NCBI RefSeq assembly: GCF_002075285.3
Contig: NZ_CP021983.2
Span: 2,490,001-2,522,000, forward strand
Reading direction: 5' to 3'
Source of the DNA: Halomicronema hongdechloris C2206
GTDB lineage: Bacteria; Cyanobacteriota; Cyanobacteriia; Phormidesmidales; Phormidesmidaceae
Length of the DNA: 32,000 nucleotides
Position 1 is the first letter of the stretch. Every line of letters begins with the position of its first letter. The notes beneath the pieces were generated by a model, which did not search any database, was not told the origin of the DNA, and worked only from the letters and a program-made list of their open reading frames with translations. Both the position numbers and the translations under genes were made by a program. Positions 2,358-32,000 of this stretch are shown here, in pieces.

Positions 2358-3524
2358 TTACACCTGAGACACTACCAAAGGCGCCAGCGAACGAGTCAGC
2401 ACCTGTTGCAGCACCATGGCCGCCCAGTCCACATCGGCCTCGGTCGTGTGCCGCCCCAGGGTGAGGCGAATGCCGCACTTAGCTTCCCGGTCGCTGTAGC
2501 CCATTGCCTTGAGAATCGGGCTGGGACTCAGCTTACCACTGTGGCAAGCCGAACCAGCACTGATGCCAATGCCGGCCAGATTCATCTGCCGCACCAGGGT
2601 CTTACCACTGACTTGCTGGCCATCGGCCGCCGTCACACAAAAACTGACATGGTGGGGTAAGCGATTGCGGCGATCCCCGGTGGGCGCCAACCCCGGCACC
2701 CTGGCCAGGTGATCAAAGAGGCGATCCCGCAGATGAATCAACCGCAGCGTCTCCGCCGCCATCTCCTGGGCCGCCAACGCCGCCGCCACCCCAAACCCGG
2801 CCAGACTGGGTAGGGCCTGGGTGCCCGAACGCAGCCGAAACTCCTGGCCACCGCCGCCCAGCAATGGCATCAGCTCTACCCCAGGGCGCACATACAGAGC
2901 ACCGGCCCCTTGGGGACCATAGATCTTATGGCTAGATAGAGACAACAAATCCACCGGCAGCCGTTGCACATCGATGGGCAACCGCCCCGCCACTTGCACC
3001 GCATCCGTATGGAAGAGGGCCCCGTGCTGCCGTACCCACTGGCCCAGGGCCTCGATCGGCTGCAGGGTGCCCACCTCGCTCTGGCCGTAGATCACCGACA
3101 CCAGCACCGTATTGTCTCGTAGCGCCTGTTGCCCCTGCTCCGGATCTACCCGCCCGTCGCGATCGACAGGCAGCCAGGTCACCTGCCAACCCCGCTGCAG
3201 CAACAACCGTACCGGTTCCGCCACCGCCGAGTGCTCCACACTGGAGACCACTATGTGCTGAGGCCGAGTATAGCGATGGGCCACCCCCATGATGGCCAGG
3301 TTATCGGCCTCGGTGCCGCCAGAGGTGAAGACAATGGCGTCCATGGGCGCATTTAACAGCTGGGCCACCTGCAGCCGCGCCTGTTCTAAAATCGTAGCGG
3401 CCCGATTGCCCCACTGGTGCAGGCTAGAGGGATTGCCCCACTGACTCGTCAGCACTGATTGCATGGTGGCAATGGCCTCTGGTCGCGGCGGGGTAGTGGC
3501 ACTATGGTCCAGATAAATTTGCAT
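2358..3524 (-). CDS. Cysteine desulfurase (NifS/IscS-like, class V aminotransferase)
   Basis: 388-aa ORF. It has IYLDHSATTP at the N-terminus, the PLP-lysine motif SLSSHKIYGPQGAGALYVR, and the C-terminal active-site loop SAGSACHSG. Confidence 0.85.
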   Translation of the reverse strand: MQIYLDHSATTPPRPEAIATMQSVLTSQWGNPSSLHQWGNRAATILEQARLQVAQLLNAPMDAIVFTSGGTEADNLAIMGVAHRYTRPQHIVVSSVEHSAVAEPVRLLLQRGWQVTWLPVDRDGRVDPEQGQQALRDNTVLVSVIYGQSEVGTLQPIEALGQWVRQHGALFHTDAVQVAGRLPIDVQRLPVDLLSLSSHKIYGPQGAGALYVRPGVELMPLLGGGGQEFRLRSGTQALPSLAGFGVAAALAAQEMAAETLRLIHLRDRLFDHLARVPGLAPTGDRRNRLPHHVSFCVTAADGQQVSGKTLVRQMNLAGIGISAGSACHSGKLSPSPILKAMGYSDREAKCGIRLTLGRHTTEADVDWAAMVLQQVLTRSLAPLVVSQV

Positions 3525-3590
3525 GGCAGTTCTCGTTAGCCAGCCCGTTAGGCCGCCCGATTCGTTGTCTCCGCTACACTGTTCATCCTA

Positions 3591-3630
3591 TCAGCGTCTC
3601 CTGAAGCTTATCAGCGTCTCCTGAAGCTTA
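3591..3630. repeat. Perfect 20-bp tandem duplication (tcagcgtctcctgaagctta x2) in an intergenic region
   Basis: Read directly: 3591-3610 is identical to 3611-3630. Confidence 0.95.
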
Positions 3631-3914
3631 CCTGAGAGCCCTATATCGTTGAACATCTACTGGTACTTGTTCGCATATTGACTATATTGTTGGATTAGTT
3701 TGGCCACCAATCGAGCCGTTGGGGTGCATATGCCATGTTTGCGACGGATAACACCCCTAATTTTGGGATTAGATGGCACTTTTGACAGATAATATCCCGA
3801 AAGCAGGCATTAGTCAGCAAATCTGACCTCTAATTCTTGAAAAGATAGGATTATCCGTACAGATCTGACATTAGAATTAATAGTCATGGCTACAAACAGG
3901 CAAAGAGAACCAAT

Positions 3915-13921: not shown

Positions 13922-14104
13922 CTAGGGAGAAGCCCCGGCAAACCCCTTTCGCTGCCAGTGGGCAGTGCCTCCCGGTAAGGCGTAGACCTGCTGAAATCCC
14001 AGGCGTTGCATCATGGCTAGGGTGCGGGCGCCACGTCATACTCTTTTCCCGACGTCGATAGCGATGATGCAGTTCATGCCTATCTTGCCGACCGTCAACG
14101 CCAG
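13922..14104 (-). pseudogene. Remnant of a rhodanese-homology-domain gene, with an in-frame TGA, at the edge of the AT-rich KAP islet
   Basis: The minus-strand reading is ...IIAIDVGKRV*RGARTLAMMQRLGFQQVYALPGGTAHWQRKGF.... This parallels the active-site loop and C-terminal helix/strand of single-domain rhodaneses such as GlpE. The catalytic Cys position is Asp, TGA lies at 14036-14038, and no intact N-terminal half is present. Confidence 0.35.
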
Positions 14105-14342
14105 TCAGCAACGGTTCGACAAGAAATGGAACAACGATTTGATCCGATTGGAATTCGCGATTGCTTGCTAGACGGAATCAGCCTCAGTCGTTCAAATGAT
14201 TCAGTTGAGGGAATTATTTTAATCGCTGAGTGTAGTCTTGACGGAAAGTGGGAAAGACAAGTCAGATGTCTGCCCCTTCAATAACTAGCCCTGACTGCTA
14301 AGGTAATGGTAATACCTCCCAGAATTTTTCCAAAATGAGTTT

Positions 14343-14380
14343 TCGGAATATTAGGTGATGATCGGAATATTAGGTGATGA
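14343..14380. repeat. Perfect 19-bp tandem duplication (tcggaatattaggtgatga x2) overlapping the annotated KAP start
   Basis: Read directly: 14343-14361 is identical to 14362-14380. Confidence 0.95.
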
Positions 14381-16437
14381 GAGGAGTTTATAGGCCTTCT
14401 AGCAAAATATTTGAATTATTTCACGAGTTTTCGAGTATGTTAGCAAACATATTAAGCCATAAATTTAGAGGACCTATCACAATGGAAGACGGTCATGCGA
14501 AGCCCAAAATGTCAGCTAATAGTCACGTAAGAGAATATCTAAATTATTACTGTAGACTACCATGTGAGCCTAGATTTGCCGTTTTATTAAAGGGAGAATG
14601 GGGCTCTGGGAAAACATGGTTCATAAATAGATATGAGGAGATCCTAAAAGAAAGAAACCAAAAATGCCTGTATATCAGTCTTTATGGAATCAGCAATGTT
14701 GCCGAAATAGATGATAAATTTTTCCAGTTGCTGTATCCCATAAGGTCATCAAAAGGAATGGCAATTACTGGGATTATTGTTAAGGGATTATTGAAAGGGG
14801 CATTAAAAATCGATTTAAATAGTGATGGTAAGGATGATGCTACTTGGAATATTCAAATTCCAGAAATCAATTTTCCTGAGCGCTTAAAGGATATCAATCA
14901 AAGTATTTTGATATTTGATGACCTAGAACGTTGCAGTATAGAGCTCGGAAATTTACTAGGATATATAAACTATTTTGTAGAGCATCAAGGCTTGAAGGTA
15001 ATTCTTATTGCAAATGAAGATGAGCTAAGCAAAAACGAAAGCTACAAAGCCATAAAAGAAAAATTGATTGGCAAGACATTTAGTATATCTCCTGATTTTA
15101 GAGATGCGATGGAAGATTTTGTATCTCAAGTCCATAATGAAGACGCTAAAAATTTCTTACTTAAAAACTCCGAAAAAATAAGAGATCTATACAACAGCAA
15201 AAATTATCAAAATCTAAGAATCCTGAATCAGATTATTTTGGAATTTGAAAGGATTTTTGAAAAATTACCAGGCGAGGTAAAGAGCCGATCGGAGATCCTA
15301 GAAAATATATTAGAAAACTTTGTAAATTTTTCCACCGAAATTAGTTGTGGTTCGATACATCCCAAAGATTTGAATAAGCTATGGGAAGAGTATAATCATA
15401 TGCTAATAGGTGATAAAAGTTCTTCCAATCCAAATGGAAAAGAAAATGAGGAGATTTTTTACCGAAGAATTTTTGGGAGACATGACTTTTTTAATAGTCC
15501 ATTCCCAAATCTATATTGGTGGGAGGTACTCTTTGATAAGGGAGTTATAGACGAACAGGAATTAAAGCAATCAATACTAAGTAGCAAGTATTTTCAAGAT
15601 GAAAATACGCCTGACTGGACAAAATTGTGGCATTACTCAGAACTTGACGATGACAAATTCAATGATTTGATCAAGAAAGTTGAGGTTGACTATGGCAACA
15701 GAATATTCACCGATATTGGCATCATAAAACATATAGTTGGACTTTTCCTAAAGTTCTCTGATGCCGGAGTTTATCCTAGATCCAAACAGGATATCCTAGA
15801 AGATTCTAAAAGGTATATTGACGATCTTAGGAGTAAAAATAAATTAGAGCCTTTCCCTAAATCTTCAACTTTACCTGAAACGATTGGTCATATCATAGGC
15901 GGTTACCAAAGCCTTGAATTTATGGGGAAAGAATTTGAGGAATTCGAGGAATTTTGCAATCATCTCAATGAAATTAGGCAGTTGGTTACGATTGATAAAA
16001 TCCGTGAGGACGCTCTATGCCTGCTTGATATGATGAAAAATGACGTGAATAAGCTGTATAGGATTCTTTGCTTCGACAGTTCTCCTGCTCAAGATGAGTC
16101 AGAGCCAAGGTATCATGAGATCCCGATATTAAACTATATACCTTCTGCTGATTTTATGGCAAGCATACTTACCATGAAACCTGAGGAGCAACGGAATGTC
16201 TTCTCAATAATTTCTGAAAGATATAAGTATCAGAACATTAATAAAAAATTGATTGAAGAATTGGAATGGCTAAAATCAGTCCAGACTTTATTGTTAGAGG
16301 AATCTTCCTGTAGGCAAGGTAAGCTTAGTGAATTTCGTTTAAAAGAATTCAACACGTATTATCTGAAAGAAACAATTGCTAGGCTTGCCACTGGGAAAGA
16401 AACTTCTGGAGAAGAGAAACTAGGCGAGGTCCAATAG
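14374..16437 (+). CDS. KAP-family P-loop NTPase
   Basis: Walker A GEWGSGKT (14593-16), Walker B-like ILIFDDLERC, a long alpha-helical C-terminal region, and a very AT-rich sequence. The start is uncertain: the ATG at 14482 has AGAGGA nine nt upstream and may be the real start. Confidence 0.8.
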   Translation: MMRGVYRPSSKIFELFHEFSSMLANILSHKFRGPITMEDGHAKPKMSANSHVREYLNYYCRLPCEPRFAVLLKGEWGSGKTWFINRYEEILKERNQKCLYISLYGISNVAEIDDKFFQLLYPIRSSKGMAITGIIVKGLLKGALKIDLNSDGKDDATWNIQIPEINFPERLKDINQSILIFDDLERCSIELGNLLGYINYFVEHQGLKVILIANEDELSKNESYKAIKEKLIGKTFSISPDFRDAMEDFVSQVHNEDAKNFLLKNSEKIRDLYNSKNYQNLRILNQIILEFERIFEKLPGEVKSRSEILENILENFVNFSTEISCGSIHPKDLNKLWEEYNHMLIGDKSSSNPNGKENEEIFYRRIFGRHDFFNSPFPNLYWWEVLFDKGVIDEQELKQSILSSKYFQDENTPDWTKLWHYSELDDDKFNDLIKKVEVDYGNRIFTDIGIIKHIVGLFLKFSDAGVYPRSKQDILEDSKRYIDDLRSKNKLEPFPKSSTLPETIGHIIGGYQSLEFMGKEFEEFEEFCNHLNEIRQLVTIDKIREDALCLLDMMKNDVNKLYRILCFDSSPAQDESEPRYHEIPILNYIPSADFMASILTMKPEEQRNVFSIISERYKYQNINKKLIEELEWLKSVQTLLLEESSCRQGKLSEFRLKEFNTYYLKETIARLATGKETSGEEKLGEVQ

Positions 16438-16606
16438 GTTAATATCGATTGCCTTCTCACCGATAGCGGTAACAGGGGGGAGTCAATGCCAAAGTCGGCA
16501 AATCGAGGTAATCGCTACGACCAAGCAACTGATGTGCCAAGGTACAGGGACAAAGGAAGGTCTACAATGACGGTAAATCCAGGAATCCTCTGGCTAGCTG
16601 CAGATA

Positions 16607-19600
16607 ATGGTTGAGGAGACACCGCTCCTACAAATTCATCTGTTGGGCGATTTTTGCATCTTCGATCAAAGCGGTACCGTCATTGACATCCGGTTGCGAT
16701 CGCAAGAGCTGCTCGCCTATCTGATTCTGCACCGCCATACCCCTCAGCCCCGGCGACGGGTTGCGGCAGTCCTCTGGCCCGATGACCTAGAGAGTCAGGC
16801 CCGTACTCATCTTAGGAAAGAGCTCCATTACTTGCGACGAACCTTCCCCATCATTGAGCAGATCGTCGTGATCACCCCTCGGACCCTCCACTGGCATCCT
16901 CAAGGGGCCTGCCAGGTGGACCTGGAAATCTTTGAAACCACTTTAGCCACCGCAGAGGACTCCAAAGGCCATGGGGCTTGCCAAAAGCTGGAGTCTGCCC
17001 TCGGAGTGTATCGAGATGACCTATGGCCAGACTGTGAGGCCGACTGGCTGTATCCAGAGCGAGAACGGCTGAGACAGCGCCATGTTCGCGCCCTGGCCCA
17101 GACGACTCGACGGCTGCAAGAGCTGGGGGAAACGGCGAAAGCGATTACCCTGGGCCGACAGTGGTTACAGGCTGCCCCCCTAGACGAAGGCGGCTATCAA
17201 ACGCTGATGGCGCTCTATGGAGAGATGGACGATCGCGCCACGGCCCTACAGCTCTACCACCAATGCATGACCGCGTTGCAAACCGAACTGGGGGTATCAC
17301 CGAGCGCGACGACGGCTGAGCTCTATCAGCGGTTGCTGGTGGCTGCAGAGGTCAGCGACGATTCCCTGCCTTCGTCAGCTCTGCTCGCTGGAGAATCCAT
17401 TCCCGTGCCCGCCCCCCTGCCCCTAGCGCCCCCCACTGCCACTAAAGCGTTGGTCGGCCGCGACGAGCTGTTCCCCGCCTTAGAACAATGGCTGTTACCC
17501 ACTGCCATAAGGTCTGCCCCCCTCTTGCTCCTAACGGGAGAACCAGGCATTGGCAAGACCCGTTTGCTGGAGGCGCTGGCTGAGAGTGCAAGCCACCATC
17601 ATTTTCAGCCGTGCTGGGGTCGGGCCTTTGCTGCCGAGCAGCTGCGTTCCTACGGCGTCTGGATCGATCTGCTGCGGACAGTCTCTGACACTGAGCTTTT
17701 TTCGAGTCTCAGAGAGGTGTCAACCGACCTGCGCGATGCCCCGTTGGAGCGACTGCCTAACCGTGGACAGTTATTGGACGCCATTGTTCAGGGCCTAAGG
17801 GCCGTGACCCAGTCGGAGCAAGCCTTACTGCTGCTCTTTGACGATATTCACTGGTTAGATGAAGCCTCCACCACGCTGTTACACTATGTGTTTCGCTCCC
17901 TTGGCCACGGACCATTGCGCATCGCCTGTGCGGCTCGTGGTCAGGAGTTACAGGACAATCCAGCCATATCCAGCCTGCTAAAGTCCCTGCGACGGGCAAA
18001 TCGGTTACAGGAAGTGGCGGTGCCGCCGCTTTCCCCCGAGGCAGTTTGGACACTGGTGCAACCATTGCCCAATCCCGATCCGGACCATCCCCTCAACCCC
18101 CAGCAGATCTATGCGGACAGCGGCGGGAATCCGCTCTTTGCCCTGGAAGCGGCCCGTGCCCTGACTCAAGCCACCAGTACCCTGCCGGATCTGATTGACG
18201 ATCGCCTGCAACGATTAGATCAAGCCGCTCGGGATCTATTGCCCTGGGCCGCCGCCTTGGGTCGCCGATTTGACCCAGACACCTTGGCATCGGCGGCGGG
18301 CTATCTCCCCATGCAGTTTCTCACCGCGATCGAGCAGCTAGAAGCGCAGCAGATCGTTTGCCCAGTGCCCGCAAGTCAGGCCGATGGCGACGGCTACTAC
18401 GACTTTGCCCACGATTTGGTGCGCCAGGTGGCCTACGACCGTCTATCGCAGCCGCGACGGCGACTCATCCACCGACAGCTCGCCAAAATCCTCAATGCTC
18501 AAACCGTAGATGATGACCTGGCGAGCCAGGTGGCTTACCATGCCGAGCTTGCCGATGATCATGCCCTCGCCGCCCAGGCTGCTGCCGCCGCCGCCGCCCG
18601 TAGTTTGCGCTTATTTGCCTACAAAGACGTGATTCAACTCGTGGCTCAGGGCCTACATCACTGTCAATTTCTGTCCAGGGGTGAGCGCCTCTGCCTATCG
18701 GCCCAGCTCCTGCGAACTCGGGTACTGGCGGGCATGGCCACCGAAGAAAGCGCTATCGTCGAATCTCAGCTACAGCAGCTCACCGCCGAGTTGGAAGGCC
18801 TATCGATGCCTGAAGCCGAGCTCATCGTTCAGGAGGCGTTAAACTTTTTGCACTACGATCAGGGCAACCTCGCAACCGTGCATCAGCAGAGCCTCAGGGC
18901 CTTGGATGCCTTACCCCCCAGCCCTCAACTCCAGGCCCAGAGCCTGGCGGCCAATGGCTGCTGCTTAGCCGAAATTGAGCGGGACATGGATCGGGCCGAA
19001 GCCGTCCTGCTGGAAGCCCAGGCCATCGCAGAACGATTGGGGTTGAAGCTGATTGATGTTGCCACCGGGTTAGGCTGTATCGAGCGGTATCGAGGCCACT
19101 ACGGACAGGCCCGCACCTACTTGCAGCAGGCCTTACAGCTTGCCCAGAATCAGCGGCATTTTGTGGCCCAGGGATATGCCTTGAGCCAATTGGCCATGAC
19201 CGGCTGGGACTGGCATCAACCAGACATCGTCGCTGTTCAGGCATTAGTGCAGTTGGCCAAGCGGCTCCCCCAGGGCAGTGAGGGCAGTTTTGCCGCCGCC
19301 TTGATGGCGTTGAGTGCCTATGCCGATGATCCGGATGCGACCGAGGCGTTGGATCTAAAGCTGCATCAGTTAAATCAGCTCGACGCCCAGCGCAAGCTAG
19401 TCTTTATTGCCAGCCACGCCTGTGAAATCGCCCTGGCCCATCATCAGCAAGCAGCCGCCCGACGCTATGGGACCATGGCCCAGCAAGCGGCTCAGCAGGT
19501 GGGGCATCCTAACGATCTGGTAATGACAGGTGCCCTGCAGGTGCTAACTGCCAATCAAGCCGCTGAGCAACAGGCTTCGTGGCAGCAGCTTCAGCACAAC

Positions 19601-19741
19601 CCCGATATCAATGATTGTCGCTGCAGCGCTCGGGCTCGGTCATTATATGAGCAGGCACAACGGGTAATGCAGCCGTCCATGGCCAAGCGGCATACGCTTC
19701 AAGATAGCTGCCGACGGAGTGCGGTGAACCAAACGATGTGA
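16607..19741 (+). CDS. SARP/BTAD-family transcriptional regulator with AAA/STAND ATPase and C-terminal TPR-like region (AfsR-like)
   Basis: The N-terminal part is LLGDFCIFDQSGTVIDIRLRSQELLAYLIL...RRRVAAVLWPD. The BTAD-like segment is YQTLMALYGEMDDRATALQLYHQCMTALQTELGVSPS. Walker A is GEPGIGKT (17537-60) and Walker B is LLLFDDIHWLD. Confidence 0.8.
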   Translation: MVEETPLLQIHLLGDFCIFDQSGTVIDIRLRSQELLAYLILHRHTPQPRRRVAAVLWPDDLESQARTHLRKELHYLRRTFPIIEQIVVITPRTLHWHPQGACQVDLEIFETTLATAEDSKGHGACQKLESALGVYRDDLWPDCEADWLYPERERLRQRHVRALAQTTRRLQELGETAKAITLGRQWLQAAPLDEGGYQTLMALYGEMDDRATALQLYHQCMTALQTELGVSPSATTAELYQRLLVAAEVSDDSLPSSALLAGESIPVPAPLPLAPPTATKALVGRDELFPALEQWLLPTAIRSAPLLLLTGEPGIGKTRLLEALAESASHHHFQPCWGRAFAAEQLRSYGVWIDLLRTVSDTELFSSLREVSTDLRDAPLERLPNRGQLLDAIVQGLRAVTQSEQALLLLFDDIHWLDEASTTLLHYVFRSLGHGPLRIACAARGQELQDNPAISSLLKSLRRANRLQEVAVPPLSPEAVWTLVQPLPNPDPDHPLNPQQIYADSGGNPLFALEAARALTQATSTLPDLIDDRLQRLDQAARDLLPWAAALGRRFDPDTLASAAGYLPMQFLTAIEQLEAQQIVCPVPASQADGDGYYDFAHDLVRQVAYDRLSQPRRRLIHRQLAKILNAQTVDDDLASQVAYHAELADDHALAAQAAAAAAARSLRLFAYKDVIQLVAQGLHHCQFLSRGERLCLSAQLLRTRVLAGMATEESAIVESQLQQLTAELEGLSMPEAELIVQEALNFLHYDQGNLATVHQQSLRALDALPPSPQLQAQSLAANGCCLAEIERDMDRAEAVLLEAQAIAERLGLKLIDVATGLGCIERYRGHYGQARTYLQQALQLAQNQRHFVAQGYALSQLAMTGWDWHQPDIVAVQALVQLAKRLPQGSEGSFAAALMALSAYADDPDATEALDLKLHQLNQLDAQRKLVFIASHACEIALAHHQQAAARRYGTMAQQAAQQVGHPNDLVMTGALQVLTANQAAEQQASWQQLQHNPDINDCRCSARARSLYEQAQRVMQPSMAKRHTLQDSCRRSAVNQTM

Positions 19742-22983: not shown

Positions 22984-24273
22984 CCCTTAGTGGCGCAGAG
23001 AAGTGCTGAAAGTGCTGCTGTATAAGGACTCTCAAATAGGACAAGAGGGTATTTCATGAGAAGCTGAAGTTCCCCAACTACCGCTAACCTCATGGAAACG
23101 CCTATCGTCAACTGGAAGACCAATTACGTCAATGGGTCGAGCCCAAAGACCAACGCCATCTGCAGGGCTTCACTGAAATGCTGGCGGCCATCTTGCAATC
23201 TGGCCAGGCCTGCTTGGGGAAATGGATTCCTTACTTGGATCACCGCGGGTGTAGCGCCCGGGCTCACTTGGAACGTGTAAGCTATTTTCTCCGCAATGAG
23301 CAGATCACTGCGGAACGGGTCTACCGGCCCTTGTTACGCCATGTGCTGCCCGCGTTTGCTGGGGAAGCTGTCCTGTTGACCTTGGATACGAGTCTGCTGT
23401 GGAATCACTGGTGCTTGATAGAGGTGTGCTTGGCTTGGGGCGGGCGGTCGCTCACGCTGACCCAACAGGTAATTGAACATCGCAGTGCCACCATCCGTTT
23501 TGAACAATACCACGGGGTGCTGGAGTGCGCCCGTCGAGCCTTACCGCCAGGGAGTCAGGTGACGCTTTTGGCCGACCGAGGCTTTGAACATGGAGACTTG
23601 ATCCGTTGGCTTAATCGCAATCACTGGAACTGGTCGATTCGCGTCAAGTCAGACTTGCTGGTCACCCTGGCCCAGGGGCGAACTCAACCCGTCGAGGCCC
23701 TCTGTCCACCGCCGAATCAGGCGTATCTCTTCCCCAACGTGCAGGTGCTTGAAGATATCAAGGCGCATCTGGCGACGGCCAACGTGCCGGACGCTCAAGA
23801 CACCTGGGCGGTGTTGTCGAACCAACCTCCCTCGCTACAGACCTTCGCGCTCTATGGCCAGCGGTTCGGTGGGATTGAGCCCCATTTTAAGGATTACAAG
23901 TCAGCAGCATTTGACCTCTTGGAGACGGGACTGCGGGAAGCCGAGATGCTGACCCGTTTAGTCATGCTGTTGGACGCCGCCTCGCTCATTGCCCTGATAC
24001 TTGGCCTGATGCTTGTCCACGCAAAACAGCGGGCTCGGATTGACTGGCATGGGGAGCGGGGGTTGAGTTTTCTGCAACTTGGTCTGCGTGAGTTGGCTCG
24101 GCTGTGCTACCAGCGATTACCTCTGCCCAAACTTCGGGCTTTGACCAAAGGCCATCCATCTCCGGCCTGTGCCTCACGCTGTAAACGTGAGGCCTTAGAT
24201 TGTCGCGTTGAGTTCTCTAAGGTCGTTGTGTTCTCATCTTGAGACTGTTCTGAGTTTTCTGCACCACTAAGGG
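22984..24273 (+). mobile_element. Complete IS4/IS701-like insertion sequence (~1.29 kb) with terminal inverted repeats
   Basis: IRL is CCCTTAGTGGCGCAGAGAA (22984-23002). IRR, as the reverse complement of 24255-24273, is CCCTTAGTGGTGCAGAAAA (17/19 identical). The element encloses a single DDE transposase gene. I could not identify a convincing target-site duplication. Confidence 0.8.
23178..24242 (+). CDS. DDE transposase (IS4/IS701-like); the 5' end is apparently frameshifted
   Basis: Motifs are LLTLDTS, LLADRGFEHGDLIRWL and YGQRFGGIEPHFKDYK (Y-R-E-K signature). The same frame stays open upstream to 23088 and encodes AYRQLEDQLRQWVEPKDQRHLQGFTE, a typical N-terminus for this family. The only nearby ATG (23092) is one base out of frame. 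Confidence 0.8.
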   Translation: MLAAILQSGQACLGKWIPYLDHRGCSARAHLERVSYFLRNEQITAERVYRPLLRHVLPAFAGEAVLLTLDTSLLWNHWCLIEVCLAWGGRSLTLTQQVIEHRSATIRFEQYHGVLECARRALPPGSQVTLLADRGFEHGDLIRWLNRNHWNWSIRVKSDLLVTLAQGRTQPVEALCPPPNQAYLFPNVQVLEDIKAHLATANVPDAQDTWAVLSNQPPSLQTFALYGQRFGGIEPHFKDYKSAAFDLLETGLREAEMLTRLVMLLDAASLIALILGLMLVHAKQRARIDWHGERGLSFLQLGLRELARLCYQRLPLPKLRALTKGHPSPACASRCKREALDCRVEFSKVVVFSS

Positions 24274-24593: not shown

Positions 24594-25334
24594 TATTCAT
24601 CGAGTAAAAGCAATGAATGTGGATATTTAAAGGTTTTTTGAACAAAAGGCTGAGCTAGTGATCTCAAATGTTACCCTCTAGGGTAATAGCGCATCTTGAT
24701 TCTTTGGTAAATAATTGAGGCGTGCAAGAGTGAACCAGCAAGCCAACTGACATCGAACTGACTGGTTAGCATCTATCAGTATTTCAGCATCTACCAAAAC
24801 TATTCGGGCTCTTTGGACTAAACTATGCTGACTGCATTACTAAAAACCTCGAATCCCTTATGTAGCAATACTTGTAGGTCTTAGAAACTCAAACAGAGTC
24901 ACGAATGCCGCAAAATCCTGCGCCGTAAGGATTCTAGCGATTTTCAGGGCTGTATTGCATACCCTAGCCGGAAGACCCACTATTCGTGAAGCAAAAGCCA
25001 GGTTCCTTAGATGACTTTGAAGTGGAAACTTGAATAGTAAACCTCCGAGTTTCAACTTGTGGGCATTACCTTAGTATGCTGAATACGGTTAATGGCTTTT
25101 TCAGGCTCAGCATAAAAATTTTTGGCGATATGATTGCGAAGATTTCGCGGAAAGAGAATTTTGGCGAATAAATGCCTCACAAAGACTATCTTCCCTAATA
25201 AATCTTGCTTAGTAATACGTACAAGAATTTTGGAATCTCGAACAGTATGTGTAGTTCTGAAGAAGCACATAATTAGTGATAAAATTACGCAATCCAATGG
25301 GTGTACGGTATCTTTTTTGATTAGGTACGATTTT

Positions 25335-26282
25335 ATGGCTAGCTATAGCAAGCAGGGATCTAAATTTAAAGCCCTAGTCTATGAAGGTGAATTACAACGT
25401 ATTTCTGGTTGGGTTGAGGAATATCCGAATTTAGAAACGGGTGGAGATCTATTTGGATTCTGGACACATTCTGGATTCCCAGTTGTTCAATTTGTATTGG
25501 GTCCTGGCTCAAAAAGTAGACATAACCCAACCAGTTTTTACCAAGATAAAGATTACTTGGTTGAAAGTGGTAGTCTTCTCAGGAGTAAGCATGGCTTACA
25601 ACATATTGGAGAGTGGCATTCTCATCATCAACTTGGATTGGCTCAACCTAGTCAAGGAGATGAAAATACAGTTTTTAGAGCATTAGAAAAATACAAATTT
25701 CCCAAGTTTTTACTTTTCATTGCGAATTTAAGACCTAACTCAGGAAGTCGTTGCCAAAGAAGCAAATGGACGGTCAATGTAGGGAGCTTTTTATTCACCC
25801 GATCTATACCTAAGTATCAGGTTGGCCAATGGGTAGTTTTACCAGAAAATAGTCCAATTCGGTCAACTTTACATCAGAGCTGGCCTCAAAGTTCATCCTT
25901 TGAAAAAACTTGCCTCTCAAATAGTTGGAAGGTTGACCAAACCTCACTGGAAGCTGAAATCCTGGAGCCAACTCAACCAATTGAAATCGCTGAATATCTG
26001 TGGTACTCGAAACCAGAGGGACAAAATTTGCTGAAGGAAATTGATTCCGACCTAAAACAAGTCTTTAAAGACTGCCAAATGTTTCGAACAGTCACAGGAA
26101 GTATTTACTTTACTTTCAAATATGGTCTGGATTACTGGCGAGTTAACTTACCTAATAACTTTCCTGATTCATCACCAACATTACAAGTTAACGAGGGGGA
26201 ACCAATATCGATTGAAGAGTATTCTAGCCAAACAAACTTAATAAATGATTTGAAAATATACTTAAAAATTCGAATGAAATAA
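25335..26282 (+). CDS. JAB/MPN (JAMM) metalloprotease with C-terminal E2/UEV/RWD-like extension
   Basis: The preferred start is the ATG at 25335 (MASYSKQG...), because the upstream part of track ORF 25134 is low-complexity. The JAMM motif is ETGGDLFGFW ... GEWHSHHQLGLAQPSQGD (25617-25661). The C-terminal SIYFTFKYGLDYWRVNLPNNFPDSSPTLQV parallels the flap region of the next gene. Confidence 0.8.
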   Translation: MASYSKQGSKFKALVYEGELQRISGWVEEYPNLETGGDLFGFWTHSGFPVVQFVLGPGSKSRHNPTSFYQDKDYLVESGSLLRSKHGLQHIGEWHSHHQLGLAQPSQGDENTVFRALEKYKFPKFLLFIANLRPNSGSRCQRSKWTVNVGSFLFTRSIPKYQVGQWVVLPENSPIRSTLHQSWPQSSSFEKTCLSNSWKVDQTSLEAEILEPTQPIEIAEYLWYSKPEGQNLLKEIDSDLKQVFKDCQMFRTVTGSIYFTFKYGLDYWRVNLPNNFPDSSPTLQVNEGEPISIEEYSSQTNLINDLKIYLKIRMK

Positions 26283-26297
26283 AAGGTTGATAAAGTT

Positions 26298-26762
26298 ATG
26301 AATTGGAGTAAGATCCAGCAAAAACGTTTACTGATAGAGAAGGAAATTCTCAAGAAGTACTTCCCTGCATTTAAGTGGGTTAATCCTACTGATTCCAGTA
26401 ATACAAGAATAGAAGGCAACGTATGCACTAATTCTATGAAACTGTACACTCTCAGAGTGTATATACCTTCAGATTTTCCTAATTCACGTCCTGATATGGT
26501 TGTAACCTTGCCATATCCTCTTGAAGGATGTTCAGGAAATGACTTGAAAGATTATGGTGCGAGTTCAAGTATGCACACGCTGGATCCAAGAGATGGCTAT
26601 GTTCAAATTTGTCACTATAAAGATTGGACAGACAACCTAACCGTTTACTTGGTTGTCTTAAAAGGAAGAATTTGGCTTGAAGCATATGAAGCACACAAAC
26701 GTACTGGACAACCTTTGGACCACTTCTTACCTCATATGCTTGGTGGTGCAGAAAACTCCTGA
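26298..26762 (+). CDS. Stand-alone prokaryotic E2-like (UBC-fold) protein
   Basis: The N-terminal helix is QQKRLLIEKEILKKYFP. The beta-meander plus flap is KLYTLRVYIPSDFPNSRPDMVV. An HPN-like MHTL has His93 (26574-76), and the candidate catalytic Cys105 lies in VQICHYKDW (26610-12). The gene starts 15 nt after the JAB stop. Confidence 0.7.
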   Translation: MNWSKIQQKRLLIEKEILKKYFPAFKWVNPTDSSNTRIEGNVCTNSMKLYTLRVYIPSDFPNSRPDMVVTLPYPLEGCSGNDLKDYGASSSMHTLDPRDGYVQICHYKDWTDNLTVYLVVLKGRIWLEAYEAHKRTGQPLDHFLPHMLGGAENS

Positions 26763-26790
26763 AACCCTTATGGATAAAGGATTCTCATTA

Positions 26791-26906
26791 AGACCGTCAT
26801 TTTTGGCTTTCTCAAAAAATTGGACGAGGGCAGTAGGTTTCAGCCGATGTTTTGGCTGTTCAAGCCATCCACTGTGAGACTCAAAAAAGTTTTCTGCACC
26901 ACTGAG
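26791..26906 (+). mobile_element. Truncated 3' end, including the right inverted repeat, of a second diverged copy of the IS at 22984-24273
   Basis: gttttctgcaccactgag (26889-26906) matches gttttctgcaccactaag (24254-24271) at 17/18 positions. TGAGACT, including the transposase stop codon, sits at the same offset in both copies (26875-81 vs 24240-46). The upstream frame ...AVGFSRCFGCSS..* loosely parallels ...RVEFSKVVVFSS*. Confidence 0.6.
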
Positions 26907-27031
26907 CCTCATATGTAATGAACAAATATATACTTGCAATGGAAAATTGAAACCATAGCATATCAGTTTTTGAACAAATCTATCCTGCCTCTACGTAATT
27001 ATTTCAGTGAACATTAAGGAGGACAAATCCA

Positions 27032-27223
27032 ATGACAGATTCTCAAAATGTGCAGGAACATCTAGAGATTATGACTGAAGAAGGGGCTGCGCCACCCAAC
27101 CAAGAACTCGTTTTCGACCCAACAACAGGCCAGCTAGTTGTAAAGAGCATAAGTGATCCTAAGCCTAATCCTGATGCTGTGACTGCGACCCAAATTGCTG
27201 AAGATGGTTTCTTCCAGGAGTAG
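27032..27223 (+). CDS. Small (63 aa) acidic, proline-rich protein of unknown function located 5 nt upstream of the E1-like gene
   Basis: A strong SD, AAGGAGG (27016-22), lies 9 nt upstream of the ATG. The stop is 5 nt before the E1-like ATG. The sequence is MTDSQNVQEHLEIMTEEGAAPPNQELVFDPTTGQLVVKSISDPKPNPDAVTATQIAEDGFFQE. I recognise no family. Confidence 0.6.
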   Translation: MTDSQNVQEHLEIMTEEGAAPPNQELVFDPTTGQLVVKSISDPKPNPDAVTATQIAEDGFFQE

Positions 27224-27228
27224 TAGTT

Positions 27229-28530
27229 ATGAATTCATATCTTGTCTACATGCACCAGGAGCAAGTCCAAGCGATCTACCAAAACTTTATTGCTTCTGGA
27301 ATAAACACAATTCGTGGAATTGCGTTTGAGTTTGATGACGGTGATGTTTTTCATATTTATACATCAGAACCCAAAACTCAGATCTCTGGTTATCCCTGTG
27401 CTTCCCTCATTCAATTTCTAGATCGATTACCTACCAACGAAGCAGGTCTAGCGATGGCTAAACAGCTTCGTAACACAATGCAAAATAATGGTGTCAATTC
27501 TTCTAGACATATATTGATTATTCTATTCTCAATAGAGGATGGTCAGTTAAAGCATCATGTTTTCGCGAGTAGAGCTGAAGGCGAATTCCAAGAAGGAGTT
27601 ATGAAATTTCTTCCTGGGAGATCCGAGCTTTATTCTCGCAGTAAAGGAATCTTGGAAACTTCAATCTTAGAGAACTGCAAAGTTGGGATTGTTGGCCTGG
27701 GTAGTGGTGGTTCTAGTATTGCAGTAGAACTGGCTAAAGCAGGAATTGGTAATTTTGTGTTGATTGACTATGATCGACTGGAATTAGCCAACATTGCTAG
27801 GCATGTTTGTGGGACAGGTGATCTTGGTCGTTATAAAACTAAGGCGGTCAAAGATGCACTATATGGCAAGAATCCTCACATTCAGGTTGACAGCGCCGAG
27901 CTCGATATTAACGAAAATTTAGAGCAAACCAAAATACTGCTTAAAGACTGCAATTTAATTATTGCAGCTACTGACAACGATCGCAGTCGTTTCAATTTAA
28001 ATAGTATTTCCTTGGAATATAGAATTCCTACTATTTTTGGTAGAGCATTAACTCGTGCTATTGGAGGTGATGTTCTAAGAGTCCGCCCTCATCAAGGACC
28101 TTGTTTAAGATGTATTTTTACCAAAGATTTTCTAGCAACCCGTAAACAGGAAATATCCACGTCTACCCAGGCTAGGAAAGATACACCAGCCTATGTCTCA
28201 GATGAAGAGGTTAACGCAACTGTTCAAGTTGGATTGTCTTCTGATATTGTGCCCATCTCAAACATGGTTGTGAAACTGGCATTAGTAGAGCTGTCTAAAG
28301 GTCGAGCCAGTGGCATTGCTTCCCTAGAAGAAGATTTGATTGCGAACTTTTACATTTGGGCTAATCGGCGTGAGCAAACCTATGCTGAATGGCCAAAGAT
28401 GGAATATGGTTCAAGAACACCCTCTATCCTGCGGTGGTACGGTGCAAAGTGGGAGCGCAACGCAACTTGCCCCGCCTGTAACGAAGACCATGAACTACTG
28501 GATGAGGAAGACAATATTTTTGCTAGTTAA
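27229..28530 (+). CDS. ThiF/MoeB/E1-like adenylating enzyme with an unassigned ~145-aa N-terminal domain
   Basis: The Rossmann motif is KVGIVGLGSGGSSIAVELAKAGIGNFVLIDYDRLELANIARH (GxGxxG at 27694-27711), followed by ATDNDRSR. Two CxxC pairs, GPCLRC (28102-13) and CPAC (28468-79), resemble the Zn site of MoeB/ThiF/MccB. Confidence 0.8.
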   Translation: MNSYLVYMHQEQVQAIYQNFIASGINTIRGIAFEFDDGDVFHIYTSEPKTQISGYPCASLIQFLDRLPTNEAGLAMAKQLRNTMQNNGVNSSRHILIILFSIEDGQLKHHVFASRAEGEFQEGVMKFLPGRSELYSRSKGILETSILENCKVGIVGLGSGGSSIAVELAKAGIGNFVLIDYDRLELANIARHVCGTGDLGRYKTKAVKDALYGKNPHIQVDSAELDINENLEQTKILLKDCNLIIAATDNDRSRFNLNSISLEYRIPTIFGRALTRAIGGDVLRVRPHQGPCLRCIFTKDFLATRKQEISTSTQARKDTPAYVSDEEVNATVQVGLSSDIVPISNMVVKLALVELSKGRASGIASLEEDLIANFYIWANRREQTYAEWPKMEYGSRTPSILRWYGAKWERNATCPACNEDHELLDEEDNIFAS

Positions 28531-28683
28531 GAAGATAAACACTATTTTCTCGGCTCTTCTGGATATCAGGTGATAAGCGTGGCAAGGGTTTCAGCCTTGT
28601 TAATGCTATTTTTTGTATCCAATTGACCATTTTCAACCATAAACCCAAAAGAGCCATTTTCTCGATGTAAAACACTTAAAAAC

Positions 28684-31600
28684 ATGAATGACTTTGAAGC
28701 AGCTCAGTTACTACAGCAAGGTATTCAGCATTTCCGGGTTGGTCAATTGGATCTAGCCGCCGATTCCTTTCGTGAAGCCTTAAGGATATCCAAAGTTCTT
28801 GGAAACCGCGCTGTTGAGGGAGTAGCTCTCACTGTTCTGGGCAATGTCTACCTTAACCAAAACAAATACCAGCAAGCGATTGAAGCTCAGGAACAAGCCC
28901 TAGCGCTCTCCAAAGAGACTGGTAACTATGCCGGACAGGGAGCAGCCCTAGGTGGATTAGGATTGGCTTACCTTAAGCAAGGTCAAACTCAACGAGGTGC
29001 TGAGCATCTTGAAGACGCATTACCCATCTTCAAACAAATTGGCGATCGCGCGGGAGAATGTCAGGTGTTGAGTGGGTTGGGAAATGCCTATACCCAATCA
29101 GAAGAATATGCAACCGCAGTGAAGTACCTTCAGCAAGCACTAACAGCTGCTAGGGAAATCGGCAATCCTGTCGGGGAGGCCACAGCTTTGGGTGGCTTAG
29201 GAGAGGTTTACCTTAAGCAAGGTCAATATCAAAAAGCCATTGAGTCTTTGAAGCCGGTGTTACCCATCTTCCAGGAAATGGGCAATCGCCCATGGCAAGG
29301 AGAAACCCATATTAACCTGGCAAAGGCCTACGACAATTTGCAGCAGTACACAGAGGCAATTACTCATTATGAACAGGCCTTCAACATTTTTCAAGATTTG
29401 GGCGATCGCAATAAAGTCGGCAATCTACTGCTTAATCTGGGCATTGATCAGGGGCAACTGGGTCAATATTCTGAGTCTGCCTCCTCCTATCAAAGAGCTT
29501 TATCAACTTTCCAGGATGACGGTGATCAAGCGGGAGAAGGAAAGGCTCTGCTGAATTTGGGCATTACCTGCTCTTATCTGGCGCAATATTCAGAAGGAAT
29601 CCGTTTCCTGAGTCAAGCCCTTAGCATTTTCCAGCATCTGGGTGATCTGAGGAGTCAAGGAATCGTTTTAGAGCGTCTGAGCTATACCCACATGGGATCA
29701 GGCCAGTTCACAGAAGCCATCAGCTTTTTCCAGCAAGGTTTAGATATTGTCCGAATGAGTTGCGATCGCCTGACAGAGGGCACAATCCTAAGCAATTTAG
29801 GCTATGCATTGACGCAAACAGGGGAATATCAACAAGCTCTCGAACATCTCAACCAAGCTTTAAGTATCGCTCATGAACTCGAAAACTCTATTCTCAAAGG
29901 TCAAGCTTTATCATTTTTAGGAAATTTATATCTTGATCAGGGCAAATATCAAGAAGCCATTGAAACTCAGAGATATGCTTTATCAATTCTAAGGAAGACT
30001 AACAACGCTTTGGGACAAGCCGCAGCTTTGGGTTGCATAGGACTTGCCCACTTGCAACAAAGTCAATATCAAGAAGGCATTAAGCATCTTGAGGAGGCGT
30101 TGCCAATCTTCAAACAAACTAGATACCGATTTGGAGAATGCCAAACTTTAAATGGTTTAGGTAATGCCTATACTCAGTTACAAGACTATCCAAGCGCCAT
30201 TGATTATTTCCAGCAAGCACTGAAAATTGCGAAGGAAATTGGTAATTGTGTAGGAGAAGCAACAGCATTAAGTGGATTAGGTGATGCTTATCTACAACAT
30301 GGTCAATATCAAGAAGCGATCGATGCTTTGCAGTCAATAATACCGATTTTGCCAGAAATTGGCGATCGCCAGTTGGAGCAGACCATATATATTAATTTGG
30401 GCAAAGTCTATACTGAGCTTAAACAATTTAAGGCAGCAATCCAATCCTTTGAGAAAAGCTTAAAAATCACTCGAGAACTTGGTGCTCGGATAGAAGAACT
30501 GCTTGCCTTAAGTAGCTTAAGCACTCTAAATTTTGAAGCTAAGAGATTTGAGAGCACAATAAAATATTCTAGGCAGATTTTAACTCTTTTAGACAAGAAG
30601 AGCGATACTGAATTAAACCTCGAAAATGAAGTGAAACTCAACATTTTGTCAGAGGCAAAATACAATATCGGCACAGCTCATCTATATAAGCAAAAAGGCA
30701 TAAGAACTGACAATTTAGAGTTAGCCATTCGCTATCTTAAAGAAGCCTTACAAGGATATTCTAGAGACAACCTTTCCTCTGAGTGGGCAAAGGCTCATAA
30801 TAATCTTTCCATTGCATATTTGGATAGAATTCGAGGTGGTAAAGCAGAAAATATAGAGAATTCAATTAAGCACTCAAAAAACACCTTAGAAGTTTATACA
30901 ATAGAGGAGTACCCTGAAGAATGGGCTAGAACTCAACTTAATTTAGGTCATGCTTACTTGGCAAGAATACTTGGTGAGAAAGTAGCTAATCTTCAAGAAT
31001 CAATCGGCTTCTGTCAGCGAGCTTTATCTGTTTTTACTCAGAAGGAATCTCCTGAGTATTGGGCGAAATCACAAAGTAACTTGGGAGCTGCCTATGCTAC
31101 TCTTGCTAAGCAAAGTAGTCTTAAGGTGGGTTTCCTAGATTATGTGAAGCAGGGTAAACCTAAAGTCACCTCAGAAAACTTTTCCAATTTTAGTACTAGC
31201 AACTATGAAGAAGTAAAGCATAAATTTTTAGAAAAAGCAATTGAAAGCTTTACGCTTGCTTTGCAATTTCTAGATGAGACAAACTCTCCCTTTGATTGGG
31301 CACAGGTTCAGATGAATTTAGGAGCTGCTTTCTTAGATAAGTCTGAAATCATAGAATTGAAAGAGAAAGATAGATTGATAGATCTAGCCATTAACTCTTT
31401 TGACTCTGCCCTAAGGGTCTTTACTCCTATTAAGACTCCTGAGAAGTGGGCAGAAGTGAACAATCACATGGCAGTTGCATATATCAAGAGACTGAAAAGT
31501 GAAACAGGAGATAAGGCTGAGATTTTTAGTAATTCAGTTGTTCGTTTCCAAGATACGCTACAAATTTATACGCGCGAGGCTTTTCCTCAAAAATATGCAG

Positions 31601-32000
31601 AGGCCCAACACAATCTTGGACGAGCCTATAAGTATGCTGAGAACTACAGTGCGGCATACGATGCATTCTATGAAGTCATTGAAACCTTAGACTATCTGCG
31701 TAGTGAGATAAGTCCCAAATCAGGCATACAAGAAGACAAGCAGAAGCTGACGGAAGCATGGAACCATGTTTACCAGGAGATGGTGCAGCTCTGTTTGAAG
31801 CTTGATAAGCCTATAGAGGCAATTGAATATGTTGAACGGAGTAAAACCAAGAGTCTTGTTGAGCTTCTTACAAATAAAGAAAATTACTACGAACATGAAA
31901 CATCTCTAAGTCGAATCCGTGATGTTGGAAGGATTTCCTTTGCTGATATTCAAGACCTGATTGACGATCAAACTGCGATCATCGAATGGTATATCGCAGA
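28684..32000 (+). CDS. Giant TPR-repeat protein, 3'-partial (over 1105 codons with no stop before the window end); probable TPR-CHAT protease
   Basis: This ORF is not in the supplied track. I translated it by hand from ATG 28684 (MNDFEAAQLLQQGIQHF...) to the last base and found no stop. It contains about 14 canonical 40-aa TPR units, then W-containing repeats (P.EWA..Q.NLG.AY), then EYVERSKTKSLVELL...DQTAIIEWYIA. That order matches the usual lead-in to a CHAT domain in cyanobacterial proteins. The catalytic part would lie beyond the window. Confidence 0.75.
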   Translation, partial: MNDFEAAQLLQQGIQHFRVGQLDLAADSFREALRISKVLGNRAVEGVALTVLGNVYLNQNKYQQAIEAQEQALALSKETGNYAGQGAALGGLGLAYLKQGQTQRGAEHLEDALPIFKQIGDRAGECQVLSGLGNAYTQSEEYATAVKYLQQALTAAREIGNPVGEATALGGLGEVYLKQGQYQKAIESLKPVLPIFQEMGNRPWQGETHINLAKAYDNLQQYTEAITHYEQAFNIFQDLGDRNKVGNLLLNLGIDQGQLGQYSESASSYQRALSTFQDDGDQAGEGKALLNLGITCSYLAQYSEGIRFLSQALSIFQHLGDLRSQGIVLERLSYTHMGSGQFTEAISFFQQGLDIVRMSCDRLTEGTILSNLGYALTQTGEYQQALEHLNQALSIAHELENSILKGQALSFLGNLYLDQGKYQEAIETQRYALSILRKTNNALGQAAALGCIGLAHLQQSQYQEGIKHLEEALPIFKQTRYRFGECQTLNGLGNAYTQLQDYPSAIDYFQQALKIAKEIGNCVGEATALSGLGDAYLQHGQYQEAIDALQSIIPILPEIGDRQLEQTIYINLGKVYTELKQFKAAIQSFEKSLKITRELGARIEELLALSSLSTLNFEAKRFESTIKYSRQILTLLDKKSDTELNLENEVKLNILSEAKYNIGTAHLYKQKGIRTDNLELAIRYLKEALQGYSRDNLSSEWAKAHNNLSIAYLDRIRGGKAENIENSIKHSKNTLEVYTIEEYPEEWARTQLNLGHAYLARILGEKVANLQESIGFCQRALSVFTQKESPEYWAKSQSNLGAAYATLAKQSSLKVGFLDYVKQGKPKVTSENFSNFSTSNYEEVKHKFLEKAIESFTLALQFLDETNSPFDWAQVQMNLGAAFLDKSEIIELKEKDRLIDLAINSFDSALRVFTPIKTPEKWAEVNNHMAVAYIKRLKSETGDKAEIFSNSVVRFQDTLQIYTREAFPQKYAEAQHNLGRAYKYAENYSAAYDAFYEVIETLDYLRSEISPKSGIQEDKQKLTEAWNHVYQEMVQLCLKLDKPIEAIEYVERSKTKSLVELLTNKENYYEHETSLSRIRDVGRISFADIQDLIDDQTAIIEWYIA
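28825..30415 (+). repeat. Intragenic segmental duplication: two ~510-bp four-TPR blocks (28825-29335 and 29905-30415), offset by 1080 bp
   Basis: The first block reads ALTVLGNVYLNQNKYQQAIEAQEQALALSKETGN...LSGLGNAYTQSEEYATAVKYLQQALTAAREIGNPVGEATALGGLGEVYLKQGQYQKAIESL. The second reads ALSFLGNLYLDQGKYQEAIETQRYALSILRKTNN...LNGLGNAYTQLQDYPSAIDYFQQALKIAKEIGNCVGEATALSGLGDAYLQHGQYQEAIDAL. Confidence 0.8.

Follow-up and report, generated by a model that had tools for sequence, protein, structure and literature searches.

Introduction

To our knowledge, all ubiquitin-type conjugation is built either on a beta-grasp protein or, in systems resembling the cyclic oligonucleotide-based anti-phage signalling system (CBASS), on the tail of a large enzyme. 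The present analysis concerns a window of 32,000 nucleotides (nt) from Halomicronema hongdechloris C2206 (contig NZ_CP021983.2, positions 2,490,001 to 2,522,000), which contains a low-GC island with four plus-strand genes encoding, in this order, a JAB/JAMM peptidase, an E2-like protein, a 63-codon open reading frame (ORF) and a ThiF-family E1. The product of the third gene, here called S, completes a conserved JAB-E2-S-E1 cassette, of which it is the only non-enzymatic part. What is new is this small partner, predicted by modelling not to adopt the beta-grasp fold; the ubiquitin-type conjugation machinery that surrounds it is known.

In every characterised system that combines an E1, an E2 and a JAB, the protein activated at its C-terminus is encoded in the operon: it is the CD-NTase in CBASS and a ubiquitin-like protein (Ubl) in Bil and Bub (PMC11601596; 10.1101/2022.03.31.486616). 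In type II CBASS, a protein without the beta-grasp fold is acted on by Cap2 and Cap3, which supply an E1 adenylation domain of the homodimer type, an E2 bearing a catalytic Cys and a JAB peptidase, a set of features to which the S cassette would correspond (10.1101/2022.03.31.486616). The adenylation of the CD-NTase tail by Cap2 is the precedent for a substrate of this type (10.1101/2022.03.31.486616). There are also differences. E1 and E2 are encoded by separate genes in the S cassette, whereas Cap2 is an E2-E1 fusion; there is neither a CD-NTase nor an effector, and PADLOC matches are confined to the E1 and the JAB; a dedicated protein of 63 amino acids (aa) is the presumed substrate, and its conserved end is aromatic instead of Gly; and the E1, unlike Cap2, has no conserved Cys in its crossover loop.

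Bub (6E) type I operons offer a second parallel. The small modifier can be made as an N-terminal fusion to the E2, as in BubAB, present in one to three copies and released by a JAB, and in BubCD an invariant Tyr of a Cys-less crossover loop forms an oxyester (PMC11601596). The S-S-E2 protein encoded in locus L098, a relative of the cassette, matches the layout of this Ubl-E2 precursor. The S-cassette E1 has no conserved Cys in the segment that would be its crossover loop and displays an invariant Tyr322 there, whose equivalence to the BubCD residue is positional only; it has an additional domain at its N-terminus, and its model is aligned over the whole length to BubCD by Foldseek. However, the sequence similarity between the two E1s is marginal (E=5e-5 over 49 residues), S is modelled as something other than a beta-grasp protein, the E2 uses Cys rather than Ser, the JAB is a separate protein, and no DUF6527/BubE was found among the neighbouring genes scanned against Pfam. 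The Bil (BilABCD) and PRTRC/6d operons share the four-gene logic of small protein, E2, JAB and E1, as well as mobile or defence contexts, but their small proteins are beta-grasp Ubls ending in Gly, the Bil E1 is multidomain (IAD-AAD-CYS), and PRTRC operons include a JAB-N and further genes (PMC1779556, PMC11601596).

Two further comparisons concern the small protein itself. Pup is, like S, an acidic non-beta-grasp tag, of about 64 aa. It is read by Mpa, to which the AAA+ unfoldase genes that follow the S cassette in two clades may be compared. In contrast to S, Pup is disordered and ends in GGQ or GGE, and its ligation, which uses a Glu side chain, is the work of PafA/Dop, enzymes of glutamine-synthetase fold, not of E1 and E2; the two proteins show no sequence similarity, and the S cassette has neither PafA/Dop nor such an end. 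MccA/MccB and PaaP/PaaA resemble the S-E1 pair in that a short ribosomal product is encoded just upstream of an E1-like enzyme with an N-terminal peptide-binding domain, but no E2 or JAB takes part, MccA ends in Asn, and the products are small-molecule antibiotics. The S cassette was not found in the literature searched, which included the operon catalogue of Iyer 2006 (types 6a-6e) and the Cap2, Bil and Bub papers; subscription journals lay largely outside that search, and an earlier description is possible.

S and E1 are linked across bacterial phyla

Eighty genome loci around relatives of the E1 were assembled, and their ORFs were searched with profiles of S, E1, E2 and JAB. The loci derive from Cyanobacteria, Bacteroidota, Caldisericota, Actinomycetota, Verrucomicrobiota, Fibrobacter and others, at least six phyla altogether. 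An earlier note on this DNA, made from the letters alone, had proposed comparing homologous loci to see whether the small ORF is kept next to the E1 gene: S is present in 75 of the 76 assessable E1 loci, and all four parts of the cassette in 70. A free S directly precedes the E1 in 64 loci, including seven divergent Barnesiella/Bacteroidaceae copies missed by the hidden Markov model; nine loci possess S only as an N-terminal E1 fusion, and two have both free and fused copies. The sole locus without S is an orphan E1 on the Acaryochloris plasmid pREB3. Even where the cassette is permuted, as in Actinobacteria (S-E1-JAB-E2), S still adjoins the E1. The two genes overlap by 4 nt in relatives, and in H. 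hongdechloris they are separated by a 5-nt gap and S is preceded by a strong ribosome-binding site.

Among the small ORFs in and around the cassette, S is the only family that recurs in the loci examined, and no candidate for a beta-grasp Ubl does so. The earlier note had considered that a canonical Ubl gene might sit elsewhere in the operons of relatives; none does so recurrently. A search for a conserved fifth cassette gene ended similarly, as none is universal and the accessory genes are clade-specific.

S is a genuine gene of an unannotated family

S is encoded on the plus strand at 27032..27223, stop codon included, from an ATG at 27032 to a TAG at 27221-27223, and its 63 residues read MTDSQNVQEHLEIMTEEGAAPPNQELVFDPTTGQLVVKSISDPKPNPDAVTATQIAEDGFFQE. 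A Shine-Dalgarno sequence, AAGGAGG (27016..27022, plus strand), lies 9 nt 5' of the start codon; of the three copies of this heptamer in the whole window, it is the only one in the low-GC island. The S stop is followed by 5 nt (27224-27228) and then by the E1 ATG at 27229. The ORF coordinates, the AAGGAGG and the 5-nt gap had been given exactly in the earlier note, which also called this Shine-Dalgarno sequence the best in the island and described the protein as acidic and proline-rich: it contains 12 Asp and Glu against two Lys and Arg, six Pro, and has an isoelectric point of 4.05.

S is a real gene. The ratio of non-synonymous to synonymous substitution rates (dN/dS) is 0.16 against the Trichodesmium orthologue and 0.11 against that of Microcoleus, with a proportion of non-synonymous differences (pN) of about 0.25 and synonymous sites near saturation. 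A word-indexed search returned five relatives, an exhaustive profile search with S 212 proteins at E<=1e-3 and a second profile search 147; when profile hits and locus ORFs are pooled, the full motif is found in approximately 155 distinct sequences. Family members are 55-90 aa long, contain an L-x-F-D-P-x-T-G-x-L hairpin, a P-D-A-V element and, near the C-terminus, I-A-x-D-G-aromatic-F/A, and are encoded adjacent or fused to an E1, E2 or JAB. The window protein, which is a 100% match of the family member P0001, bears every one of these elements. The long proteins with multiple hits in the profile search were discarded as non-relatives: they are propellers of the Kelch or FG-GAP kind, in which the blade motif resembles the FDPxTG hairpin. 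A phage origin was likewise set aside, as a search of IMG/VR found no relative. The relatives are all labelled 'hypothetical protein' and none has a Pfam domain; S finds no family match in Pfam, NCBIfam or PADLOC, and the same is true of the E2-like protein, for which reason these cassettes are invisible to automatic annotation.

The shortness of the ORF and its lack of a database family would suit a chance reading frame, or a decayed E1 fragment devoid of its own function. The dN/dS of 0.11-0.16, some 150 relatives with invariant residues, the position kept in 75 of 76 loci and the strong ribosome-binding site all argue the other way, and since S is conserved this explanation is refuted for practical purposes, with a probability that we judge negligible.

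Conserved motifs and predicted fold of S

Three elements of S are conserved: a hairpin, L-x-F-D-P-x-T-G-x-L-V-V; P-x-P-D-A-V; and I-A-x-D-G-(F/Y)-(F/A). In the window protein, with all coordinates on the plus strand, they are preceded by a predicted N-terminal helix at residues 2-17 (27035..27082), variable in sequence apart from a conserved Leu11 and present both in the AlphaFold2 model of S and in that of an S-E1 fusion. The beta-hairpin ELVFDPTTGQLVV spans residues 24-39 (27101..27148), with F28 and D29 invariant and L26, P30, T32 and G33 conserved at 90% or above. The PNPDAV motif occupies residues 45-50 (27164..27181), its D48 being invariant in alignment A5. The C-terminal motif IAEDGFF, residues 55-61 (27194..27214), has an aromatic residue at position 60 and F, A, M or L at position 61. 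The last two residues, QE (62-63; 27215..27220), form a variable tail that is a candidate for removal by the JAB and is modelled with a predicted local distance difference test (pLDDT) of about 55.

F28, D29, D48 and G59 are invariant among 120 S members, and Gly59 is the sole invariant column among 63 diverse ones. A clade comprising Barnesiella, Tannerella and Bacteroidaceae has P, D or V in place of Gly59 and keeps only the aromatic pair, as exemplified by ATQIAKKDYYLL. Past position 61 there is an unconserved tail, usually of 0-10 residues; 14 of 155 members end exactly at position 61 and none ends earlier.

AlphaFold2, run on S with 120 relatives, predicts the helix at 2-17, a hairpin formed by 24-29 and 34-39, a short strand and a helix at 53-59. 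The model has a mean pLDDT of 76.7 and a predicted template modelling score (pTM) of 0.56, and residues 61-63 alone score low (about 55). A natural fusion of S to E1, P0015 of Aerosakkonema, was modelled with the same elements and a confident S part (pLDDT 72-88); this approximates the co-folding with the E1 that the earlier note had proposed. A Foldseek comparison of the S model with the PDB gave no fold match, the best E being 1.1 and nothing in it ubiquitin-like, and no Pfam Ubl family matched S at E<=1. S is accordingly predicted from these models to be a small folded domain, neither disordered nor beta-grasp. The earlier note had considered the sequence largely disordered, a description with which the model disagrees, and a disordered, Pup-like peptide was set aside on the AlphaFold models.

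S as an independent module: fusions and tandem copies

Many E1 relatives are approximately 494 aa long, because S is fused in frame at their N-terminus, with the E1 proper following 3-10 residues after GFF. Other arrangements have also been found: tandem S-S proteins (P0134, P0144, P0170, P0249); an S-S-E1 fusion on 13 contigs (P0160); an S-S-E2 fusion (P0149) with five cluster members on at least six contigs, which sits in the JAB-[S-S-E2]-E1 locus L098 beside an E1 without S; and an S-JAB fusion on a single contig (P0151). S is on the N-terminal side in every fusion seen, so that a single cut would free its C-terminus, an organisation shared by Ub and by the BubAB precursor (PMC11601596). 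The hairpin xFDPxTGxLxV occurs alone as well, as one to three extra repeats at an E1 N-terminus or before a complete S (L097; P0194, P0184, P0215). In L097 (2686-4134) the E1 N-terminus has two degenerate hairpin-only repeats, yet a complete free S is kept.

S is thus an independent module. The possibility that it is a split piece of the E1 N-terminal domain is ruled out by the S-S-E2 protein beside an S-less E1, by the tandem S-S proteins and by the coexistence of free and fused copies.

The enzymes: JAB, E2-like protein and E1

Conservation of enzyme residues was assessed over 65-68 non-identical cassettes. The JAB/JAMM metallopeptidase (25335..26282, plus strand; about 315 aa from ATG 25335) has an invariant catalytic motif, made up of E101, H162-x-H164, S173 and D176 in ORF numbering, and a C-terminal domain of about 180 aa with no assigned function. 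Its ORF is open from a TTG at 25134 (382 aa), but all relatives align from about residue 68, and the true start is probably ATG 25335, giving a protein of 315 aa as in relatives. The E2-like (UBC-like) protein of 154 aa (26298..26762, plus strand), whose UniRef label is 'UBC core domain-containing', has an invariant His93, and Cys105 (codon 26610-26612), itself described as invariant, is present in 66 of 67 sequences. In Trichodesmium (L003-L008, L018) the E2-like gene corresponds to a pair of overlapping ORFs that differ in frame (3248-3649 and 3564-3758 in L003); this frameshift recurs in every independent contig, and the gene is either a pseudogene or subject to programmed frameshifting.

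The E1 (27229..28530, plus strand; 433 aa) matches ThiF at 1.6e-34 and consists of an N-terminal domain (about residues 1-135) and an adenylation domain (about 136-420). It keeps the GxGxxG motif, R191, K203, D249 and both CxxC zinc motifs. The crossover-loop segment, located by position between the first CxxC and the QVGLSSD helix, has no conserved Cys, and E308 and Y322 (codon 28192-28194) are invariant in it, a pattern which suggests either direct transfer from the adenylate to the E2 or a Tyr oxyester as in BubCD. The PADLOC profile for the Cap2-type 'E1-E2' matches the E1 at 4e-33, and that for the Cap3-type 'JAB' matches the peptidase at 3.5e-13. The solved enzymes closest to the E1 in sequence are ThiF, MoeB, MccB, UBA5, PaaA and Cap2; those closest to its model in structure are Cap2 (7to3, the best), BubCD, UBA5, Atg7 and MccB. 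The 135-residue N-terminal domain may be MPN-like, since Foldseek aligns the whole model to BubCD; an hhalign comparison of this domain with the cassette JAB was not significant (probability 1.5%). With the JAB motif, His93 and Cys105 of the E2 and the ATP- and zinc-binding residues of the E1 all conserved, the enzymes look active.

The presence of MccB and PaaA among the closest solved relatives, together with a small S ORF translationally coupled to an E1 with an extra N-terminal domain, could be taken to indicate that S belongs with MccA and PaaP as a ribosomally made peptide precursor, from which the E1 would generate a peptidyl-adenylate or a cyclised product and which the JAB would process. 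We regard this as very improbable. An E2-like protein with invariant Cys and His is always present; S has no terminal Asn, ending in QE here and in varied residues among relatives; no exporter, immunity or tailoring genes are conserved in the cassette; the whole 60-aa fold is conserved instead of a leader followed by a variable core; and S is found fused to enzymes.

The C-terminus of the E1 itself resembles that of S. In the window it reads EEDNIFAS (residues 426-433; 28504..28527, plus strand), to be compared with AEDGFFQE in S. Among the E1s of Cyanobacteria and Actinobacteria the tail is DDxFFG (the fused clade), EDNIFA(S/G) or GFFG (Actinobacteria), and the E1s of Bacteroidota and Caldisericota end directly after the second CxxC, with no tail. 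As the final residues of cyanobacterial and actinobacterial tails are often exactly FFG, or IFA plus a closing S or G (NIFAS here), the last one being small, such as E1s normally adenylate, S might be an acceptor and not a donor, another C-terminus, for instance that of the E1, being ligated onto S or onto a protein recruited by S. This is an improbable arrangement: Bacteroidota and Caldisericota E1s are without the tail yet keep S, and no Lys is conserved in S.

S as a candidate modifier precursor

The reading that we favour, and to which we assign about an even chance, is that S is the precursor of a non-beta-grasp modifier, trimmed or released by the JAB, adenylated by the E1 and carried by Cys105 of the E2-like protein; cleavage, adenylation, transfer and the identity of the reactive residue are all inferred. 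S would be made as a precursor whose C-terminal end is freed by the JAB at or just after the IAxDG-aromatic-F/A motif, which would mean loss of Q62-E63 in H. hongdechloris and release from the downstream enzyme in S-E1 and S-S-E2 fusions. The exposed carboxylate would then be adenylated by the ThiF-type E1, and the acyl group would pass to Cys105 and from there to an amine of a target; the JAB might also be able to reverse the S-target linkage.

This proposal rests on the fact that characterised E1, E2 and JAB systems encode the protein that is activated, and S is the sole candidate present in all lineages. The motif followed by a tail, the N-terminal position that S takes in fusions, its occurrence in tandem and its close coupling to the E1 agree with it, and the complete free S retained in L097 beside an E1 with degenerate repeats lends it further support. 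The peptide-adenylating MccB and PaaA belong to the solved enzymes closest to the E1, which has been counted in favour of a non-beta-grasp substrate. A non-beta-grasp modifier was one of the options put forward in the earlier note and emerges as the best-supported class, at the even chance just stated.

Several observations weigh against S being a modifier. It has neither a Gly-Gly nor a terminal Gly. The IAEDGF segment is modelled in a helix and is consistent with a Schellman-type cap (hydrophobic I55, then D58-G59-F60), which would make the motif part of the fold and leave members lacking a tail with little free chain to enter the E1 pocket. Some fused copies have no motif or no Gly (P0052 in L097 and the E1 of the Bradyrhizobium plasmid), and the acidic-small-aromatic-Phe motif that the E1 tail shares with S fits a docking motif as well as it fits a reactive end. 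The choice of reactive residue adds its own difficulties. If it were Gly59, the P, D or V that stands there in the Barnesiella/Bacteroidaceae clade and the two conserved residues that follow it throughout would be hard to accommodate; if it were position 61, no characterised E1 that adenylates a C-terminal Phe, Ala, Met or Leu was found.

Several of these points also serve another explanation, one which we consider possible but doubtful: that S is a non-covalent adaptor, regulator or pseudosubstrate docking on the E1 (on its N-terminal domain), the E2 or the JAB, a regulator of the E1 having been among the options of the earlier note. S would then assemble or gate the enzymes or recognise the target, and the conjugated protein would be found elsewhere, for example in the FFG/NIFA tail of the E1 or in an unlinked protein. 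The many S-E1 fusions with a linker of only 3-10 residues, in which S is modelled confidently, are in keeping with such a role, as are the predicted helical and buried state of the motif, the existence of hairpin-only copies and of a Gly-less fused copy, and the fact that the universal feature is the aromatic pair and not a terminal Gly. A shared docking pocket would explain why the tail of the E1 bears the same motif; UBA5 and Atg7, two minimal E1s, recruit partners via tail motifs. However, if S were an adaptor, no substrate for the E1 would be encoded in Bacteroidota and Caldisericota, whose E1s have no tail. It would also leave unexplained the consistent N-terminal location of S in tandems and in fusions with different enzymes, the free variable tail after a conserved motif, and the retention of a complete free S where the E1 already has S-like repeats.

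Within the modifier-precursor reading, the position of the cut has to be considered. The earlier note had suggested trimming after Gly59, an idea that draws strength from the invariance of this residue in 63 members and in most of the family, but that is opposed by the clade with P, D or V, by the fit to a helix cap and by the absence of any member ending before position 61. As a universal rule the Gly59 cut is weakened by that clade. Members that end naturally at position 61 speak for this position, and F61 is tentatively favoured over G59 as the putative reactive end.

Gene layout and surroundings in the window

From about 24.3 kb through to the window end, G+C falls from approximately 0.57-0.60 to 0.37-0.45, and this low-GC island bears the cassette. 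An IS4-type DDE transposase (23178-24242) lies just upstream, bordering the island. Between the E2-like gene and S there is an untranslated gap of 269 nt (26763-27031), where most relatives have about 10-100 nt or an overlap. A terminator-like hairpin followed by a T-run (28580..28602, plus strand), recognised by consensus match only, begins 50 nt past the E1 stop, and the operon probably ends there. An Rfam scan of the whole window gave no match.

The next gene past the cassette (28684-32000, plus strand) is an ORF of at least 1105 aa with TPR repeats, which starts 153 nt past the E1 stop, beyond the terminator-like hairpin, and is cut short by the end of the window. The cassette of Nocardia (L087) is followed by a gene for a 1100-aa CHAT-domain protein. 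A second low-GC block in the window (14000-16500, G+C 0.33-0.39) contains a KAP-family P-loop NTPase at 14374-16437, after which a BTAD-STAND-TPR regulator is encoded at 16607-19741.

Accessory genes in related loci

Accessory genes have been seen in the relatives of the cassette. In 13 cyanobacterial loci, the present window not being one of them, an HTH-STAND NTPase gene, usually divergent, is located upstream. Seven Bacteroidales loci (L078, L084, L088, L089, L090, L092, L093) have a diverged ClpB-like double-AAA+ gene of about 857 codons after the E1, starting 4-10 nt past the E1 stop in five of them and about 240-260 nt past it in L088 and L090. With 920-1006 bits the proteins stay below the ClpB cut-off of 1232, and identity to the L078 copy is only 46-53% for those of L088, L090 and L092. 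The ClpB-like gene is followed by one for a 336-341-aa protein in four loci (L078, L089, L092, L093) and then by a DUF4407 gene in three (L078, L089, L093). Genes for the 336-type protein and DUF4407 follow the cassette in L060 and L062 as well.

A different AAA ATPase, PAN/Cdc48/IteA-like, 500-575 aa long and with a classic-clade AAA domain, is encoded after the E1 in seven Flavobacterium-type loci (L075-L077, L079, L081, L083, L085). The distance is 17 nt in L076 and L079 and ranges from an overlap to about 530 nt in the others. Its best profile matches, each of them far short of the respective cut-off, are to the IteA anti-phage ATPase, PAN, Cdc48 and Mpa, and a WYL-domain regulator is found upstream in five of the seven loci. 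Four loci of Bacteroidota and Verrucomicrobiota have a PtuA/MADS3-like AAA_15 ATPase gene 15-24 nt after the E1. On Bradyrhizobium plasmids a distant JAB-E2-E1 version is found next to nuclease and TIR genes. In the Bradyrhizobium barranii plasmid pBb323S2b (L096, 2035-8405) the E1 of this version is 38% identical, its N-terminus shows by eye a weak S-like segment without Gly, and the locus adjoins genes with a double-stranded DNA nuclease domain and a TIR domain.

The accessory genes suggest that the cassette is a mobile conflict or defence module, and the link to unfoldases hints at a tag-and-unfold logic in some lineages; both indications come from relatives and apply only indirectly to the window. 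A bolder version of the modifier-precursor reading would make S a third, independently evolved prokaryotic tag after Pup and the beta-grasp Ubls, joined through a non-glycine aromatic C-terminus and read in some lineages by the AAA+ unfoldases, ClpB-like or PAN/Cdc48-like, encoded immediately after the E1. We think this version unlikely as a whole.

Concluding remarks

If S is a modifier, the E1, E2 and JAB machinery can be re-tooled for a different kind of tag, and a compact four-gene system would join the list of bacterial conjugation pathways, which are probably related to conflict or defence. Should the tag prove to be joined through an aromatic end and to be read by unfoldases, a logic like that of ubiquitin and the proteasome would be operating on a different tag. 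S would in addition be a small and easily synthesised substrate with which the C-terminus requirements of the E1 and the JAB may be probed.

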